A stretch of 64,000 nt of DNA from Deltaproteobacteria bacterium UBA6601 (lineage in GTDB: Bacteria; Myxococcota_A; UBA796; UBA9615). The translations under genes and the position numbers were made by a program. Location: assembly GCA_002433485.1 (NCBI GenBank), contig DJIF01000084.1, positions 61,286-125,285 of the forward strand. Direction: 5' to 3'. A model generated the notes under the pieces. That model was not told the origin of the DNA. It worked only from the letters and a program-made list of their open reading frames with translations, and made no database searches. Below are positions 27,819-61,656 of the stretch, one piece after another (within the stretch, counting starts at the first letter, position 1; every line of letters begins with the position of its first letter).

Positions 27819-29855
27819 ATGAACCGGAACCGCCTGCTGGTCCTGCTGATCGTCCTGTTTCTGGTCGCCGTGGTCGCTACGGCGGCGATCGGTGTCAACC
27901 TTATGGTCAAGGCGGCCAGCGGCGACGTCGAAGAGGGCTCTACCCTGGTGCTCGACCTGGCCGGGCCCTTCCCCGAGCAACCCGCTCCGGAGGCACCGCT
28001 CGCTGGATTGGGCTCTCAGCCGCTGTCGGTGTTTGAAGTCGACACAGTGCTCGAAGAGGCATCCTTCGATGACAACATCGAGCAATTACTGATCCGGATT
28101 GGCGGCATCGAAGCGGGCTACGGAAAGGTCTTTGAGTTGCGAGAAATCATCGCCCGTTTCTCCCGAGAGTCTGGCAAGGCGACCACCTGCTGGATGGAGG
28201 CCGGTGGCAACCGGGAGTACCTGCTTGCCACTGCCTGCGATGAGATCTTCATGGCTCCTGAGGGCTTCATGCTGGTCAACGGGCTGCACATCAACACCAC
28301 CTTCTTTAAAGGGACCCTCGACAAGCTGGGCATCGAGGCTGAATTCACCCGAGCCGGTCGCTACAAGAGCGCTGTCGAGCCTCTGACTCGAAAAGAGATG
28401 TCGGGCCCTTACAAGGAAATGCTCAACTCCATCGCCGACAGTCTGTTCACCGATTACGTGGATGCAGTAGCGAGCGCTCGAGATCTGGATGGAGATAGCG
28501 TCCGTGCCCTGATCGACAACCCCAGCATTACCGCAACAAGCGCCCACCAGGTCGGCCTGATCGACGGACTCCTCTACCGAGATCAGCTGCACGATTACTT
28601 GCGAGGTGACTTTGAGCCCGAAGCAGTTGAAGAGCCGACTGAGCCCCTGATTTTCGCTGCAGCCGACACTGACCTGCCCACCCTCAACGAATCAGCGGCA
28701 GCTCCAGGCACCTGGGTTGCAGGTCGCGGTGAGGTCGCGCCTGAGTTGGTCGACCTGCTGCGCCAACAACAACCGGTTGATGCTCAAAGCAAGGGCAATG
28801 ACGACGACAGCGGCGACCTGGCCCCTGGCAATCAAGAGGGCCGGGACGACGACGACAGCAGTGACCAGGACACTGACGATGAAGAGGACCAAAGCAACGG
28901 TCCACGCATTAAATTCCGGGACTATCAGGCCTCCATGGAAGACCTGTTCGATCTGGGCGGGAACGAGGCCATCGCGGTGATCTTCTGCGAGGGCCAGATC
29001 ATGTCAGGAGCCAGCGAACGCGGCGGTCTGAGCGGTCCTACTATGGGCAGCGCAACCCTCGGTCGGGCGATTCGCTCTGCTCGCATTGACGACGAAATCA
29101 AAGCGCTGGTCCTCAGAATCGACTCTCCAGGTGGAAGTGGTCTCGCCTCTGATGTGATCTGGCGTGAGATCGAGCTGGCACGCACTGAGAACAACAAACC
29201 GGTGATCGTCTCGATGGGCAACCTCGCTGCCAGTGGCGGCTACTACATCGCGATGGGTGCCGATGTGATCGTGGCCGCTCCGACCACCCTGACCGGGTCC
29301 ATCGGGGTCTACGGAGGCAAGTACAACCTCTCAGGTCTCTACGAGAAGCTGGGCATGAGTCACGATGAGCTCAAGCGTGGCGAGTTGGCCGACCTGTTCG
29401 CTTCGACCAAGCCGCTGGGTGAAGCCGGCCAGGCCAAGCTGGCAGAATTCGTCGACGCCTTTTACGAAACCTTTCTGCGTAAGGCTGCAGCAGGACGAAA
29501 CACCGATCCGCTCAAGATCCACGAGGTCGCGCAGGGACGAGTCTGGACTGGTCGTCAAGCCCAACAGATCGGCCTGGTGGACGAATTGGGCTCGCTCCGA
29601 ACCGCCATCGCCATCGCTCGGGAACGGGCCAATCTGGACCGCTCGGCTAAGCTGCGAGTGCTCCCGGAGCAGCCCAGCTTTCTCGACGAACTGCTCGGCG
29701 GCAGCTTTGAAGCCCACGCAACTCAGCGCCTGCTGCACTCCATTGACGCCCAGTACGGCAGCAGCACGGCCCTCTCAAGGCTACTGCAGGCAGCTCCGCT
29801 ATTCGCCTCCGGAAGGCCCGTACTCATGGCGCCCTACACCATCAATATCCACTGA
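27819..29855 (+). CDS. sppA: Signal peptide peptidase SppA (67K type) with acidic insertion
   Basis: Two S49 domains: GRYKSAVEP (Lys), LRIDSPGGS, AASGGYY (Ser), TGSIGV and QGRVWTG. Confidence 0.92.
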   Translation: MNRNRLLVLLIVLFLVAVVATAAIGVNLMVKAASGDVEEGSTLVLDLAGPFPEQPAPEAPLAGLGSQPLSVFEVDTVLEEASFDDNIEQLLIRIGGIEAGYGKVFELREIIARFSRESGKATTCWMEAGGNREYLLATACDEIFMAPEGFMLVNGLHINTTFFKGTLDKLGIEAEFTRAGRYKSAVEPLTRKEMSGPYKEMLNSIADSLFTDYVDAVASARDLDGDSVRALIDNPSITATSAHQVGLIDGLLYRDQLHDYLRGDFEPEAVEEPTEPLIFAAADTDLPTLNESAAAPGTWVAGRGEVAPELVDLLRQQQPVDAQSKGNDDDSGDLAPGNQEGRDDDDSSDQDTDDEEDQSNGPRIKFRDYQASMEDLFDLGGNEAIAVIFCEGQIMSGASERGGLSGPTMGSATLGRAIRSARIDDEIKALVLRIDSPGGSGLASDVIWREIELARTENNKPVIVSMGNLAASGGYYIAMGADVIVAAPTTLTGSIGVYGGKYNLSGLYEKLGMSHDELKRGELADLFASTKPLGEAGQAKLAEFVDAFYETFLRKAAAGRNTDPLKIHEVAQGRVWTGRQAQQIGLVDELGSLRTAIAIARERANLDRSAKLRVLPEQPSFLDELLGGSFEAHATQRLLHSIDAQYGSSTALSRLLQAAPLFASGRPVLMAPYTINIH

Positions 29856-55525: not shown

Positions 55526-56017
55526 ATGTACGCCTTCAAGCACATTCTCGTACCAACGGACCACTCCCAGTGCGCACGCAAGGCCCTGGGCCTCGCTATC
55601 ACCTTTGCACTCCGATTCGACTCGGACCTCTACCTGCTCTATGTCGAAGACAATCGACCTGACTCAAAGACCTGGGAAAAGAACGAGACCGCAAATCAAG
55701 AAATCCATCAGCTTGAGAGTGACGAAGCGCGTTGTCTCGAGACCTATCTGGAGGTCGCCGCCGAGGTGGCCGACTACACTGGACTGCCGGAAATGAACCG
55801 TGACAAGATCCACGTACGGGTTGGCGCCGGTGACCCAGCTGCCCAGATCCTGGCCGCAGCCGAGGACGCCAGCATCGACCTGATCGTTATGGGCACCCAC
55901 GGCCGCAGCAGCATCAAAGACTTCTTCGTCGGTTCTACCGCTGAGATGGTGGTTCGCCGCTCCACCTGCAACGTACTGGCAGTCAAGCCGGACGGTTACC
56001 CCTACCTGCGTGACTGA
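55526..56017 (+). CDS. Universal stress protein
   Basis: FKHILVPTDHS, DLIVMGTHGR, FVGSTAEMVVR and CNVLAVK. Confidence 0.9.
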   Translation: MYAFKHILVPTDHSQCARKALGLAITFALRFDSDLYLLYVEDNRPDSKTWEKNETANQEIHQLESDEARCLETYLEVAAEVADYTGLPEMNRDKIHVRVGAGDPAAQILAAAEDASIDLIVMGTHGRSSIKDFFVGSTAEMVVRRSTCNVLAVKPDGYPYLRD

Positions 56018-56750
56018 GCCCCGCCAGCCCTGGGTTCTTGAGACCCGCAACCTTCGTCGCTGCTATGGCGAGCACGTCGTCGTGGAAGGTCTCAATCTTA
56101 CCGTTGGCAAGGGCGACATCTACGGCTTCCTGGGCCCCAACGGAGCCGGCAAGACGACCACCATGAGAATGATTCTTGGGCTCATCGCACGGGATGCTGG
56201 CGAGGTCCTGGTGTTCGGCTCCGCAGACCCAATCAAGGCCCGCGCCAGAATCGGTGGCATCGTAGAGGGACCACGCTTCTACCCATATCTGTCGGGACGC
56301 GAGAACCTGCGCATCTTCGCCGCCTACTCTGGCGGCTGCGAGGAGCAAAGACTGGACGAGCTACTTGAACTCGTGCGACTACGAGAACGCTGCCTGGACC
56401 GGGTGAGCACTTACTCCCTTGGTATGCGACAACGCCTCGGCATCGCCCAAGCTCTGCTCAACGCTCCCGATCTGCTGCTACTGGACGAACCCAGCAACGG
56501 CCTGGACCCAAAAGGCATCAGAGAGATGCGGGAGCTGATTCTGCGGCTGCGCGACGAAAATGGGCTCACCGTTTTCGTGTCCTCCCATGTGCTTTCAGAG
56601 CTGGACCGGCTGTGCAACCGAATCGGAATCCTGCAGGACGGGCGAAAGGTTGCTGAGGGCCCGACCGCCGAGCTGCTCCGGGACGGCGAAGATCTGGAAT
56701 CCGCCTTCTTGCGGATCACCGCACAAGTCGAGGGAGCACAGATCAAGTGA
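56010..56750 (+). CDS. ABC exporter ATP-binding protein
   Basis: GPNGAGKTT, YSLGMRQRLG, LLLDEP and VSSH. Confidence 0.93.
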   Translation: MTEPRQPWVLETRNLRRCYGEHVVVEGLNLTVGKGDIYGFLGPNGAGKTTTMRMILGLIARDAGEVLVFGSADPIKARARIGGIVEGPRFYPYLSGRENLRIFAAYSGGCEEQRLDELLELVRLRERCLDRVSTYSLGMRQRLGIAQALLNAPDLLLLDEPSNGLDPKGIREMRELILRLRDENGLTVFVSSHVLSELDRLCNRIGILQDGRKVAEGPTAELLRDGEDLESAFLRITAQVEGAQIK

Positions 56751-57703
56751 GCGACAGGTCCAGCTTCTCCCTGCTGTGCAGCGCCGAGTTCCGCAAGCTA
56801 CGTGGGCGAGGTCTACTGCCGGCAGTGCTGCTGTTCGGCGCCGCCCATGGAATCGCCGCAGGCCTCGGCATACGAGCCCTTGAGCTGCTAGGTGGAAAGG
56901 CCCTTGATGCCTCTGGGGTGGAGTCCAGCAGAGACCTCCTGGATTTCACGGTTGCCGGCGAGGTCGCCCTGCAGCTCGCCGCAGCACCGATCCATGGTTT
57001 CGCCATGCTGCTGCTGTTTGCCATCCTCTGGGCAGAAGACTTCTCGCTGGGAACCATGGCAATGATCGTCTCTCGACCGGTGGCCCGCTGGCGAGTCTTT
57101 GCTGCCAAGTTCACCGTTGGCAGCTGCTGCGCAGCTGCCTCCCTGCTAATGGCCTTGCTTACTGCCCTGGTCCTGGGCACAGCACTATTCGGCCTGAACG
57201 GGGACCTCTCAGCCCTGGAGAGTATTCCTCTGGTGGGATGGATGGCAGCCCTACCTTCCCTGCCCATGCGGCTGATTCACCTGCTCAGCGGCGTGCTCGC
57301 CGGAACCCTGGTTTTGCTGCCCGCGCTGGGCATCACCGCACTGCTTGGAAACCTGAGTCGATCACCGGTACTGACCTTGTTCAGCTCGCTGCTGATCCTG
57401 CTGGCCGACTTCTTTGCCCACGGTATTTTAAGTATCTGGAGCAACAGCCAACTGCGTGGTGCTGAGCTGGCCGAAATGGTGCAGCCTTGGACGCTCTGGG
57501 GCAGCGGCCGAGCGCTGTTCAAGATCCACGGACCCTGGGCTGAGAGCTGGACCATCGAGGCCGCCTCCGTACAGACCGCCGAGCTGGTGAACGACCCGAG
57601 TCTCTGGAGTCAGCTGGGTCAACCCCTATTGGGAACCCTGATCTGGACACTGCTATTCACCAGCCTGGGCCTGCTCCTGTTCCGATCCCGCGATGTGAGC
57701 TGA
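56747..57703 (+). CDS. ABC-2 type permease
   Basis: AEFRK N-terminus, EDFSLGT...VSRPVARW.VFAAKF, multiple TMs, and the typical F..RDV C-terminus. Confidence 0.8.
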   Translation: MSDRSSFSLLCSAEFRKLRGRGLLPAVLLFGAAHGIAAGLGIRALELLGGKALDASGVESSRDLLDFTVAGEVALQLAAAPIHGFAMLLLFAILWAEDFSLGTMAMIVSRPVARWRVFAAKFTVGSCCAAASLLMALLTALVLGTALFGLNGDLSALESIPLVGWMAALPSLPMRLIHLLSGVLAGTLVLLPALGITALLGNLSRSPVLTLFSSLLILLADFFAHGILSIWSNSQLRGAELAEMVQPWTLWGSGRALFKIHGPWAESWTIEAASVQTAELVNDPSLWSQLGQPLLGTLIWTLLFTSLGLLLFRSRDVS

Positions 57704-57705
57704 AC

Positions 57706-59904
57706 TCAGGGAGCAACCATGGGAAAGGGCCCGGCCAGCTTCTGACCACCCACTACCAGGCCCCGATCAGGCAGCACAGCAAAGGCCCCATGCATGCTGG
57801 TCGCAAAGGGGCCTGACAGGACCGAAGCTGCCGTGTCCAGGGGATCGTAGACCCGCACTTGCAGGTTGCCCCCTGCTACAACCCTAGAGCCGACCACCTC
57901 AATCTGCTCCACAGCGTACTGGGCAGCGCTCTCCTCAAGGACCTGGACCTTCCAGCCGCTCGCACCGCGACGGGCAATGCTGGGCCGATAGCGAGCGAGC
58001 TTGCCGTAGTTAATGTGCCAGCCATCGCCAAACACCAACTCACTGACCCCATCGCCATTCAGATCACCGGCGCCTACCGCCCGCACCCCGCGCAGGCTCG
58101 GAATCTGCTCCGTAGTACCGTTCCCCAGCAATACTCGAAGGTCTCCATGTTCGCCCTTCTGGTCACCGTAGAGGCGTCCTACCGCCACATCAGAGCGCCC
58201 ATCCCCATCAAAATCGCCGACCGCGCGGGCCATTCCCATTCTCAAGCTGTGTCCGGGCAACCAATCGGGCTCCCCGCCGGCCCTCGAAAGCACTCCACCA
58301 CGCACCACAAAGCGACTCTCAAAAGCCGCGAGGTAGAGGTCATAACCATCGCCATCTCGCCTCCATGGGGCAAGAGCAGTAGCCTGGTTACGAGCGCCGG
58401 TGAGTAACGTGAGCCTCTTGCTCACGATCTGCCCACGCTGCTCTTCAAAAAGCACGACCTCCAAAGAGGCCTTGGGAAAGCCTCTACCCTGCCCAAAGGC
58501 CACCACCAGTTCATCCTTACCATCGCCATCGAGGTCCTCGGCCAACCAGGTCTGGACCATGCCCTGTCCCCGATACGACCAGCGAAAACGGGGCTGCCCG
58601 GCAGCTGCAGGCCAGGGCCCCAGGCGGAGTTCGGCACCTGAAGCTGCCAGCACTTCAAATGCCCCGCCACCTCGCACGTCGACGCTCAGGACCCGGTCAA
58701 CGGAAGACATGGGAACCATCGAAGCCGCAGCTGGTGAGACGCTCTCAGAGGCCACGGAAGCTACAGACTCGGTACCTGACTTTGCCCCGCCAGCCTCCGA
58801 CTCCGGAGTGGGCTGCCGAGTCTGGTCAATGGCAGGCGACGATGAACTGCAGCCAAACAAGGCGAGACCACTCAACAGGACCAGTAAGGCCAGCATCGGG
58901 GTCTTAGACGCGCGTCCCGGTAGATCTCTGACAAAGGCTGGCAGAGCGATCCCGCTCAGCGTTGAACGAAGACCTGCAAACAGCGCACGCGCTGAAGCTT
59001 CCGGGACCTCGAAATGGGCCACACCTTCAACCCGGTCCAGTTGGTGTAGATAGTAAGGCTTCACCCCCAGATCAACGAGGCCTTCAAACAGCTCAGCCAG
59101 CAGCTCCGGGTCATCGTTGACACCAGCGAGAAGCACACTCTGATTCAGCACGGGAATCCCTGCTCGGAGCAGCCGTTGGCAACAAGCACGCGCCTGCTCC
59201 GTGAGTTCACGAGGATGATTGAAGTGCGTAACCAGCCACAGGGGTAGGCGCTGGCCAGTGAGGCGCTCAAGAAGGCTCTCATCAATGCGCTCTGGGAGTA
59301 CCACCGGAAAGCGGCTATGAATCCGAATCCGGCGCAAGTGAGCAATCGTTGAGAGTTCCTCCACCAATGCAACGAGTCGGTCATCAGAGAGGCTCAGAGG
59401 ATCGCCTCCAGAGAGGATCACCTCACGAATGCTCGGGTCCTCTCGAATAACCTCGAGGGCACGCTTCATCACCGGTCCTCTACCTCGCAACTCCTGGTAA
59501 GGGTAGCTACGCCGAAAGCAATATCGGCAGTGCACCGGGCAGGCTGAATTAGTCACCAGCAGGGCCCGACCTGGATACTTGTGGACCAGCCCTGGTGCCT
59601 TGTGATGAGCAGGATCAAGGTCACCTACAGCGTCAAGGCAGTAGCCAGCGGGCCCCTCCTCAAGCTCGCGTGGGTCAGGCAGGATCTGGGCCAGAATCGG
59701 ATCCTTTGGATCGGAACCGTCGGCAAGGCCCAGATAGTAGTCCGTCGCGAGAAAACCAAAGCGCCGATGCGCCTCTTCCGCTGCCGCCAGTTGCTCTGCT
59801 GAATCAAGCCGGGCGCCTCCCCACCGGCGCAGCTCATCGAGACCGGTAACAAAAGCGCCGCGCCAGGACCTGGCAGGCTGCGGCTTGGGCGAGGACTGAT
59901 TCAT
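57706..59904 (-). CDS. epmB: EF-P beta-lysylation lysine 2,3-aminomutase (EpmB/KamA) fused to a lipoprotein-type signal and FG-GAP repeat domain
   Basis: HKYPGRALL, CPVHCRYCFRR, LSGGDPL, HFNHPRE, NQSVLL, YYLHQLD and GRASKTP, followed directly by MLALLVLLSGLALFGC and three DxDGDG FG-GAP motifs. ATG 59904 has GGAG upstream. Confidence 0.85.
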   Translation of the reverse strand: MNQSSPKPQPARSWRGAFVTGLDELRRWGGARLDSAEQLAAAEEAHRRFGFLATDYYLGLADGSDPKDPILAQILPDPRELEEGPAGYCLDAVGDLDPAHHKAPGLVHKYPGRALLVTNSACPVHCRYCFRRSYPYQELRGRGPVMKRALEVIREDPSIREVILSGGDPLSLSDDRLVALVEELSTIAHLRRIRIHSRFPVVLPERIDESLLERLTGQRLPLWLVTHFNHPRELTEQARACCQRLLRAGIPVLNQSVLLAGVNDDPELLAELFEGLVDLGVKPYYLHQLDRVEGVAHFEVPEASARALFAGLRSTLSGIALPAFVRDLPGRASKTPMLALLVLLSGLALFGCSSSSPAIDQTRQPTPESEAGGAKSGTESVASVASESVSPAAASMVPMSSVDRVLSVDVRGGGAFEVLAASGAELRLGPWPAAAGQPRFRWSYRGQGMVQTWLAEDLDGDGKDELVVAFGQGRGFPKASLEVVLFEEQRGQIVSKRLTLLTGARNQATALAPWRRDGDGYDLYLAAFESRFVVRGGVLSRAGGEPDWLPGHSLRMGMARAVGDFDGDGRSDVAVGRLYGDQKGEHGDLRVLLGNGTTEQIPSLRGVRAVGAGDLNGDGVSELVFGDGWHINYGKLARYRPSIARRGASGWKVQVLEESAAQYAVEQIEVVGSRVVAGGNLQVRVYDPLDTAASVLSGPFATSMHGAFAVLPDRGLVVGGQKLAGPFPMVAP

Positions 59905-60079
59905 AACCGACTCCAAATAATGAGGCGAAGAGCCGAATCTAGCCGGAATCTGCACCCTCTTCACCAGGCAATGGTTAATTCTGACAACGCACTCACCGAT
60001 CGTTCCATTCCGTGCAGCCCAGCTTTTGTGTACAGTGCCGCAGCATCACACTCAACCCACCTGAGATCAGGAGCACGCA

Positions 60080-60649
60080 ATGGCCATGCTGAGTCACACT
60101 GAACTGCGAAAGGGCGTCAAGCTCGAGATCAACGGAGAGCCGGGCATCATTGTCTCCTCAGACTTCGTCAAGCCTGGCAAGGGGCAGGCCTTCACCCGAA
60201 TCAAGGTACGCAGCTTCCTGACCGGAAACACCCTTGAGCGAACCGTCAAGTCCAACGAGAAGATGCCAAAGGCAGACGTCGAAGAGCGCAACTGTCAGTT
60301 CCTCTATCGCGACAGCGAGGGTTTTCACTTCATGGATTCTGTCAGCTACGACCAACTTGCCTTAAGCGAAGAGGCGCTGGGCGACGCAGCCAAGTGGATG
60401 GAAGAGAACATGGAGGCGCGGCTGCTGATGTGGAAGGGCCGGCCGATCTCAGTAGAGCCGCCCAACTTTGTTGAACTGGAAATCACCAACTGCGAGCCAG
60501 GGGTAAAGGGCGATACAGCTCAGGGAGCCACTAAACCCGCCACCTTGAGCACAGGTGCTACGGTCAACGTGCCACTGTTCGTCAACGAGGGGGAATGGGT
60601 TCGCATTGACACCCGGACCGGTGACTACATGGAGAGAGTCAAGAGGTAG
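60080..60649 (+). CDS. efp: Elongation factor P
   Basis: FVKPGKGQAF (modifiable Lys), PGVKGDT and VPLFVNEGE. Confidence 0.98.
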   Translation: MAMLSHTELRKGVKLEINGEPGIIVSSDFVKPGKGQAFTRIKVRSFLTGNTLERTVKSNEKMPKADVEERNCQFLYRDSEGFHFMDSVSYDQLALSEEALGDAAKWMEENMEARLLMWKGRPISVEPPNFVELEITNCEPGVKGDTAQGATKPATLSTGATVNVPLFVNEGEWVRIDTRTGDYMERVKR

Positions 60650-60651
60650 CA

Positions 60652-61656
60652 GTGGAGACACTGCGCAAACGTGCCGCAATCCTGAAGCGTATTCGAGATT
60701 TCTTCGAGGAGCGCGGCTCTCTGGAGGTCAGCACCCCGGCCATTGTGCGCTCCCCGGGCGTAGACGCTCACCTCGACGCCATAGCCGTCCAGCTCAGTGG
60801 CGGACCAGCCGGCACCCCGCAGAACGGCTGGTTGCGGACCAGCCCCGAGTACCACATGAAACGCCTCCTTGCGGCTGGGAGCGGGGCCATTCACCAGCTT
60901 GCTCCGGCCTGGCGCGATGGCGAGAAGGGCGAGCTGCATGAGCCCGAGTTCACCCTCCTTGAGTGGTATCGTCCGGGTGCCGATGACAGTGCGCTGATGG
61001 ACGAGACCGAAGCGTTGGTCCGTGATCTGGCCAGCAACTTCGCCGATGGTGTACTCAGCCATCAGGGCACGACCTGTCAAGCAGGCCAAGGCGCCCCAGC
61101 ATTCGAGCGCATAACCTTCCGTGAAGCGTTTGAGCGCCACACCGGGCTGGACCCGATCAACGACAGCACCGGCAGGCTTGGCATCGCGCTGCGGGCTGGC
61201 GGCGTCCGGGTCCAACGGCCCGCCTCACGGGAACAACTCGTCGACCTCCTGTTGGCCTTTGTCGTCCAACCCCGCCTCGGCGAGCAACACCCCTGCTTCG
61301 TCACCGACTGGCCGGTGGACCGAGCAGCCCTGGCCCGGGTTCGGCCCGGGCGCGATGCCGACCAGGCAGCTTCAGCAGCTCGATTTGAGCTGTACGCCTG
61401 CGGAATCGAGCTCTGCAATGGCTACTTCGAACTAAGTTGCGCAGAGGAGCAGCGGGCTCGCATTGAATCGGAAAACAAGCGCCGTGAAGACTTAGGCAAA
61501 GCTCCCTACCCGGTCGATGAAGACTTTCTTGCTGCCCTCAGCTCGGGGCTTCCAGACTGTGCAGGCAATGCCCTTGGAATCGACCGGCTGCTGATGCTGC
61601 TCAACCACAGTGAATCGCTGCGGGAAGTGCGCTCTTTTCTCGTCGACCTATCGTAA
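60652..61656 (+). CDS. epmA: EF-P lysine aminoacylase (GenX/PoxA)
   Basis: TSPEYHMKRLL, HEPEFTLLEWY, ELCNGYFEL and GNALGIDRL; no anticodon domain; next to efp. Confidence 0.95.
   Translation: METLRKRAAILKRIRDFFEERGSLEVSTPAIVRSPGVDAHLDAIAVQLSGGPAGTPQNGWLRTSPEYHMKRLLAAGSGAIHQLAPAWRDGEKGELHEPEFTLLEWYRPGADDSALMDETEALVRDLASNFADGVLSHQGTTCQAGQGAPAFERITFREAFERHTGLDPINDSTGRLGIALRAGGVRVQRPASREQLVDLLLAFVVQPRLGEQHPCFVTDWPVDRAALARVRPGRDADQAASAARFELYACGIELCNGYFELSCAEEQRARIESENKRREDLGKAPYPVDEDFLAALSSGLPDCAGNALGIDRLLMLLNHSESLREVRSFLVDLS

Follow-up and report, generated by a model that had tools for sequence, protein, structure and literature searches.

A single gene in a 64,000-nucleotide stretch of DNA from Deltaproteobacteria bacterium UBA6601 (contig DJIF01000084.1; this whole stretch is called the window, and coordinates are given within it) encodes, in one uninterrupted frame, the lysine 2,3-aminomutase EpmB and an FG-GAP beta-propeller of an exported type, joined by a segment that resembles a lipoprotein signal peptide. 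The single open reading frame (ORF) is conserved among relatives, as is the lipobox at the junction, and no internal start within the frame is conserved. Orthologues of the two halves are encoded as split genes in related lineages, and lgt and lspA genes are present in the genome. The product is probably a polyprotein. One chain would be inserted by the Sec system and then lipidated and cut by Lgt and LspA, giving a lipoprotein plus an EpmB with a short tail; export, lipidation, cleavage and the fate of EpmB are predicted from sequence. The gene and its parts are as follows, numbered in amino acids (aa) from the likely start codon.

57706..59904, reverse strand: fusion gene, a single 732-aa ORF with its stop at 57706-57708, encoding EpmB followed by a putative internal lipoprotein signal, the linker and the FG-GAP propeller (ORF list and translation)
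59911..59914, reverse strand: Shine-Dalgarno-like GGAG, 6 nt upstream of the ATG at 59904 (read from the sequence)
58897..59904, reverse strand: EpmB domain, aa 1-336, a KamA-family lysine 2,3-aminomutase of the radical S-adenosylmethionine (SAM)/pyridoxal phosphate (PLP) type (profile models, alignment with 2A5H, and an AlphaFold2 (AF2) model with a predicted local distance difference test score (pLDDT) mostly >90)
59518..59541, reverse strand: radical-SAM cluster motif C122-x3-C126-x2-C129, invariant in 38 aligned fusion proteins
58897..58908, reverse strand: S-K-T-P motif with K334, which aligns with the PLP lysine K337 of 2A5H; invariant
58849..58896, reverse strand: internal signal-peptide-like segment MLALLVLLSGLALFGC, aa 337-352, with a predicted helix at 335-350 (translation, alignment, AF2)
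58849-58860, reverse strand: putative lipobox L-F-G-C with Cys352 (pattern match)
58705..58848, reverse strand: linker, aa 353-400, rich in Ser, Ala, Glu and Pro, disordered in the model and conserved neither in sequence nor in length
57709..58704, reverse strand: FG-GAP beta-propeller, aa about 401-732 (Pfam; AF2 pLDDT 93.5 and predicted template modelling score (pTM) 0.92; Foldseek)

The fusion gene and its conservation

The initial annotation of the window, made from its sequence alone, had described an EpmB domain that continues without a stop into an FG-GAP part, and the ORF list and the translation bear this out. The frame is open over the whole of 57706..59964 on the reverse strand, and its likely start is the ATG at 59904, directly preceded by GGAGTCGGTT. 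No stop codon follows the ...DLPGRASKTP with which the EpmB domain ends, and reading continues into MLALLVLLSGLALFGC. Fusion proteins of this kind are annotated in public records as EpmB or as hypothetical. Public calls of the gene disagree, with products of 613 aa (P0002) and, on a short contig, 438 aa (P0005). Automated callers place the start within EpmB or near the junction, which could mask the fusion in annotation.

A search for the same fusion in relatives had been suggested at the outset, and it was found repeatedly. Among proteins restricted by length to the size of the fusion, about 40 clusters of 680-775 residues share the same two-part architecture, with 50-61% identity. An alignment of 38 fusions contains many invariant residues, catalytic as well as structural, in both halves, including the three cluster cysteines and K334. 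In a search of 15 species genomes of the family, 10 of them, from six genera, had a single open frame running across the junction. Two of the other five genomes contain adjacent but separate genes, two have the lipoprotein and EpmB on different contigs, and one, which is incomplete, gave no match. A scan of named genomes returned no fusion, only ordinary EpmBs of Planctomycetota and Gammaproteobacteria, and no EpmB fusion, internal lipobox or LspA-cut polyprotein was found described in the literature.

Two apparent complications were dismissed. Matches to EpmB of 480-640 aa were considered as independent C-terminal fusions and proved to be N-terminal over-calls that still end at SKTP. The gene of one congener (L003, G001:C247) had the appearance of a pseudogene, with a TAG and a change of frame, caused by a run of N inside the EpmB part.

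The EpmB half

By its sequence, catalytic residues and genomic context, the N-terminal half is identified as EpmB, with the caveat that its score against the equivalog model is under the cut-off. That model, TIGR03821, is the best NCBIfam match to residues 1-337 (E=4e-101; score 338, cut-off 369). The score of 276 against the KamA subfamily model TIGR00238 exceeds the cut-off of 199, and the Pfam model Radical_SAM (PF04055) also matches above its cut-off. Residues 45-337 align with residues 51-340 of the lysine 2,3-aminomutase 2A5H (E=5.6e-68), so that ...PGRASKTPM of the fusion lies opposite ...PGGGGKTPV around the PLP lysine.

The initial annotation placed the fusion gene divergent from efp-epmA, and this arrangement was confirmed, both neighbours scoring above their NCBIfam cut-offs.

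60080..60649, forward strand: efp, elongation factor P (EF-P), with the loop lysine in KPGKGQAF
60652..61656, forward strand: epmA, EF-P-(R)-beta-lysine ligase

Only one EpmB match was detected in this genome, and the genome search gave no second match at E<=1e-40 in the genomes with a fusion. Since the fused EpmB is the sole match in these genomes and the genes for EF-P and EpmA adjoin it, it must be the working enzyme.

The junction segment

At the junction, a hydrophobic stretch of 15 residues precedes the lipobox LFGC. The core lipoprotein pattern used here is of the PROSITE PS51257 type, i.e. six uncharged residues followed by [LIVMFWSTAG]2-[LIVMFYSTAGCQ]-[AGS]-C. It was matched at the junction in all 38 aligned fusions and elsewhere in those proteins once only, so its occurrence at the junction cannot be put down to chance. 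Conservation of the lipobox in relatives, which had been named as a check on the fusion, is thus complete among these sequences. The segment as a whole differs in sequence and length among the 38 proteins, and the linker behind it is unalignable. Because the pattern is invariant while segment and linker drift, the lipobox must be subject to its own selection.

Several other properties of the segment are those of a signal peptide. The spacing from K334 to the cysteine has a median of 13 residues, and the last arginine of free-standing orthologues lies at the same distance (11-15 residues) from their cysteine. The uncharged span at the junction is never shorter than 14 residues (median 17.5), a usual length for signal peptides and less than a permanent membrane helix normally has. 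In most members, R331 and K334 lie 12-19 residues ahead of the cysteine (28 in one member), with no acidic residue in between in the fusions. K334 sits where the positive charge of a signal-peptide n-region would be, the C-terminus of EpmB supplying that charge. As judged from the alignment, the junction segment has all the sequence properties of a lipoprotein signal except its position: the cysteine is residue 352, far beyond the N-terminal location (approximately the first 35 residues) that is usual for lipoprotein precursors. The fusion was not filed as an ordinary lipoprotein precursor, because that classification rests on a signal at the N-terminus.

Five genes of the genome match Lgt (PF01790) and a single one matches LspA (PF01252), all above the cut-offs. 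The lgt genes lie outside the window, on contigs C73, C134 (two copies) and C103 and at C148:194836-195585 of this genome (G000); lspA (C103:20894-21361) is adjoined by one of them (C103:19946-20701). Residues 301-368 of one family protein (P0001) gave a sub-threshold match (E=0.07; 13.5 bits, cut-off 37) to NF058595, the 'lipo-invert putative C-terminal anchoring domain', which probably reflects only the hydrophobic stretch plus a cysteine.

The question of an internal start was addressed at the codon level. An ATG (58896-58894, residue 337) begins the hydrophobic stretch, and reading of the upstream sequence revealed no Shine-Dalgarno-like motif, in agreement with the initial remark that this ATG lacks a clear ribosome-binding site. 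It is not conserved within the genus, two congeners having GTG and TTC. Across ten genomes, the codon after SKTP is ATG, GTG, TTC, GCG, CTC, CTC, CTG, ATC, CTC and CTC. The codon of V325, another candidate, varies among GTC, GTT, GTA and GTG. Among the 45 codons that precede the cysteine, an in-frame ATG, GTG or TTG can be found in each relative, but its position is not shared between them. Since the codon after SKTP varies and the candidate starts share no position, internal initiation is not conserved, and residue 337, V325 and all other positions were rejected as conserved starts.

The propeller domain

The C-terminal half belongs to a lineage-restricted family of FG-GAP propeller lipoproteins. 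It matches FG-GAP_3 (PF13517) with a score of 44.2 against a cut-off of 26.9 and FG-GAP (PF01839) with 34.3 against 22.1. Three loops of the DxDGDG type (DLDGDGKDE, DFDGDGRSD and DLNGDGVSE) correspond to the three FG-GAP motifs originally noted, which the Pfam scores corroborate.

AF2 was run on the whole fusion with a 38-sequence alignment and on the C-terminal part alone. The full-length model consists of two confident, independent domains (mean pLDDT 86.7, pTM 0.52), between which a helix (335-350) and a disordered stretch (351-384) are predicted. Alone, the C-terminal part was modelled as an all-beta propeller (pLDDT 93.5, pTM 0.92). A Foldseek search of the PDB with this model returned nothing but generic seven-bladed propellers (Lis1, DDB1 and Seh1 among them), with template modelling (TM) scores of about 0.6; it gave no functional clue beyond a propeller of the Ca-binding type. 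By sequence, the PDB matches of the propeller are marginal, to the FG-GAP repeats of integrin alpha.

Distant homologues of the propeller with 30-36% identity (P0155-P0159), from other phyla, e.g. Thermoanaerobaculia, have thioredoxin, redoxin or AhpC-TSA domains as fusion partners. Behind the lipobox, many family members share (E/D/N)-R-S-L-(A/S)-x-V (alignment A1, columns about 376-400; P0137-P0145). A PP pair is also frequent behind the lipobox in the family (APPR, EPPR, KPPH), and the protein of the window has none there. In the members concerned, these pairs might make translation of the exported part dependent on EF-P.

Split relatives and evolutionary history

Outside the family, homologues of the propeller are free-standing proteins with textbook N-terminal lipoprotein signals (MQPILLRILCLPIGLLLAC, MRPTLPILASLLSALILAC). 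Non-fused members of the family likewise begin with lipoprotein signals, e.g. MRLSVLLVVLVLVPGC, MSRWPLLLGLCLLIGC and MNHALLSAVVLLVGC, and their cysteine occupies the homologous place. In the lineages with adjacent genes, the lipoprotein gene directly follows epmB in one of four arrangements.

GTGA overlap of epmB and the lipoprotein gene (two genomes)
ATGA overlap of epmB and the lipoprotein gene (adjacent-gene lineage)
TGATG, a one-base overlap of epmB and the lipoprotein gene (adjacent-gene lineage)
29-nt spacer between epmB and the lipoprotein gene (adjacent-gene lineage)

Sister genera within the family have such split operons (G006, G011; P0141, P0143, P0144). Both of their proteins are orthologous to the halves of the fusion and are encoded in the same order, and the neighbourhood of an ABC-2 permease, an ABC ATPase and Usp is shared. 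The split operons differ in possessing a stop codon of epmB and the lipoprotein's own start and n-region, all of which are missing in the fusion.

A maximum-likelihood tree of the propeller domain was rooted on the neighbouring family. In this tree, four of the five adjacent-gene forms constitute a basal grade, and the fifth (P0141) is placed without resolution at the base of the clade that holds all fusions. A lineage with the lipoprotein alone is nested in the clade that contains the fusions. The fused state requires three changes on this tree, and a single change was obtained in no bootstrap tree. The EpmB tree is broadly congruent and less well resolved. Fused and split states seem to interchange, given the basal position of the split forms and the placement of the lipoprotein-alone lineage inside the fused clade. 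The number of fusion and separation events is uncertain, as the branch supports are moderate. The simplest history would be that of a coupled pair fused by a small deletion, followed by at least one later separation.

The lipoprotein-alone state is found in one genus (L104, G004:C30; L105, G010:C47; also L013 and L014), in which the propeller gene still adjoins the ABC-2 permease gene. The sole EpmB there is encoded on another contig, shows 45% identity and forms a long branch outside the EpmB clade of the family. This suggests that the linked EpmB was lost and replaced in that genus.

Proposed processing and alternative explanations

The ancestral state was probably a translationally coupled pair, with epmB followed by the gene of an FG-GAP propeller lipoprotein. 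A small deletion would have taken the stop codon of epmB together with the start codon and n-region of the lipoprotein, and SKTP would thereby have been joined straight to the h-region and lipobox. A single polypeptide would now be made from the ATG at 59904, and its EpmB part would fold in the cytoplasm. The internal signal would insert N-in/C-out through Sec, with translocation of the linker and propeller; lipidation of Cys352 by Lgt would be followed by LspA cleavage of the G351-C352 bond. The expected products are a mature lipoprotein as in the split relatives and an EpmB with a signal peptide of about 15 residues as a C-terminal membrane tail, which would tether the enzyme until signal-peptide peptidases trim it. 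EpmB could work either tethered or released, because its product, the (R)-beta-lysine used by EpmA and EF-P, is small and diffusible. That fused and split states have interchanged freely in evolution agrees with a model whose end products are the same for either state. The initial annotation had offered three options. The first, with EpmB as a giant n-region for Lgt and LspA, is best supported by the invariant lipobox, the signal-length stretch and the split lipoprotein orthologues, and the cleavage is the part of that option that we infer.

A few points weigh against this polyprotein. In the literature, no case was found of Lgt and LspA acting on a lipobox that has about 350 residues ahead of it. 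Conservation of the lipobox could reflect lipidation without cleavage, or some other constraint. In the protein of the window and some relatives, the uncharged span reaches 20-25 residues, the length of a membrane helix. Branch support for the order of events is, as mentioned, only moderate.

Some of these same points would suit a bitopic protein that is never cut, which was also among the options first proposed and which we consider possible but doubtful. The junction would then be a permanent N-in/C-out anchor, with Cys352 lipidated or not, EpmB at the inner membrane face and the Ca-binding propeller outside, an arrangement that might couple an envelope signal to the supply of beta-lysine for EF-P. 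A single ORF without a conserved internal start, a predicted helix (335-350) between two independent domains, and the longer uncharged spans just mentioned are all compatible with it, and proteins with a cytoplasmic domain, a single anchor and an outside domain are generally known to be common (PknB-type kinases, anti-sigma factors). A plain anchor, however, leaves unexplained why 38 of 38 fusions retain a canonical lipobox and, at -1, a small residue while the segment and linker drift, and many members have only 14-17 uncharged residues. Moreover, sister lineages make two proteins, and one nested lineage keeps the lipoprotein without a linked EpmB; physical coupling is therefore needless for either function. 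A more elaborate version appears very unlikely: the propeller would stay on EpmB or be cut off under regulation, and the state of the envelope would set the amount of active or free EpmB, and with it beta-lysylated EF-P and polyproline translation.

Internal initiation would supply the lipoprotein from a start inside the ORF (the ATG at 58896 in this genome) and leave the full-length fusion as a tolerated by-product or as an EpmB with a dispensable tail. It is unlikely. The exact coincidence of an ATG with the start of the hydrophobic segment here, and the fact that no relative lacks an in-frame ATG, GTG or TTG among the 45 codons before the cysteine, speak for it. On the other side, that ATG is replaced by GTG and TTC within the genus and by CTC, GCG or ATC elsewhere, the candidate starts share no common position, and ATG 58896 has nothing resembling a Shine-Dalgarno motif in front of it. 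The fate of the fusion needs explaining in any case, because in the absence of a stop every ribosome that starts at 59904 makes it. Scarcely credible is an artefact or accident, i.e. faulty assembly, a frameshift error or a meaningless loss of a stop codon in the very recent past, for which only prior plausibility and the draft state of the genome (154 contigs) can be adduced. The same in-frame junction occurs in independent assemblies, in several genera and in about 40 clusters of different sources, and both halves are under clear constraint. Conservation of the fusion across genera thus excludes an assembly error and a recent stop loss. The stop loss or nested start that the initial annotation had listed as its third option fails on the same grounds, as the fusion occurs in at least six genera and even the congeners lack the ATG at residue 337.

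If the chain is indeed cut at its lipobox, the lipoprotein pathway would here process a polyprotein that occurs naturally in a bacterium. Lgt and LspA would have to recognize a lipobox that follows a folded iron-sulfur enzyme and lies some 350 residues into the chain, and a C-terminally tail-anchored cytoplasmic enzyme would arise as a by-product. This bears on the substrate rules of lipoprotein biogenesis, on prediction tools that inspect N-termini only, and on the question of how adjacent genes of an operon can merge without loss of function although their products are bound for opposite places in the cell. For comparative work the family is a ready set, as it has the two genes in fused, in overlapping and in separated form. 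The fusion opens no long-standing question.

Other genes in the window

A Usp gene and genes for an ABC ATPase and an ABC-2 permease (55526-57703, forward strand) are convergent to the fusion gene. Relatives with a fused, a split or a stand-alone propeller gene (L116, L118, L013) retain the same block downstream of it, and a functional link between the ABC transporter block and the propeller lipoprotein is possible. The initial annotation also drew attention to an SppA gene, which is indeed encoded in the window and is uninformative, being 28 kb from the fusion gene.

28167-29636 (G000:C148:89452-90921), forward strand: SppA-type signal peptide peptidase with two Peptidase_S49 domains, about 28 kb away and with no link to the fusion

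Comparison with known systems

With EpmB (YjeK) of E. coli and the KamA protein 2A5H, the fusion shares the CxxxCxxC motif and the PLP lysine, and it is linked to efp and epmA. Its aminomutase core ends just past SKTP, as in EpmB, and the C-terminal domain of KamA is absent. Ordinary EpmBs end 1-12 residues past SKTP, whereas the fusion runs on for 396 residues into a domain of an exported type.

PknB-type kinases and RseA-type anti-sigma factors also consist of a cytoplasmic domain, one hydrophobic segment and an outside domain. Their anchors are about 20 residues long, have no conserved lipobox and are not derived from a lipoprotein signal peptide. The topology of the fusion would be alike, but its segment contains a lipobox that appears to derive from such a signal peptide.

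The nearest functional analogy known to us is FbcH (cytochrome b-c1) of Bradyrhizobium japonicum. Thony-Meyer et al. are said to have described it as the product of one ORF in which an internal signal exports the C-terminal part, the chain being cut into two proteins. The upstream part of FbcH is reportedly a membrane protein, and the cut is reportedly made by signal peptidase I. In the fusion, the upstream part is a soluble iron-sulfur enzyme, the predicted processing enzymes are Lgt and signal peptidase II, and the cleavage is putative.

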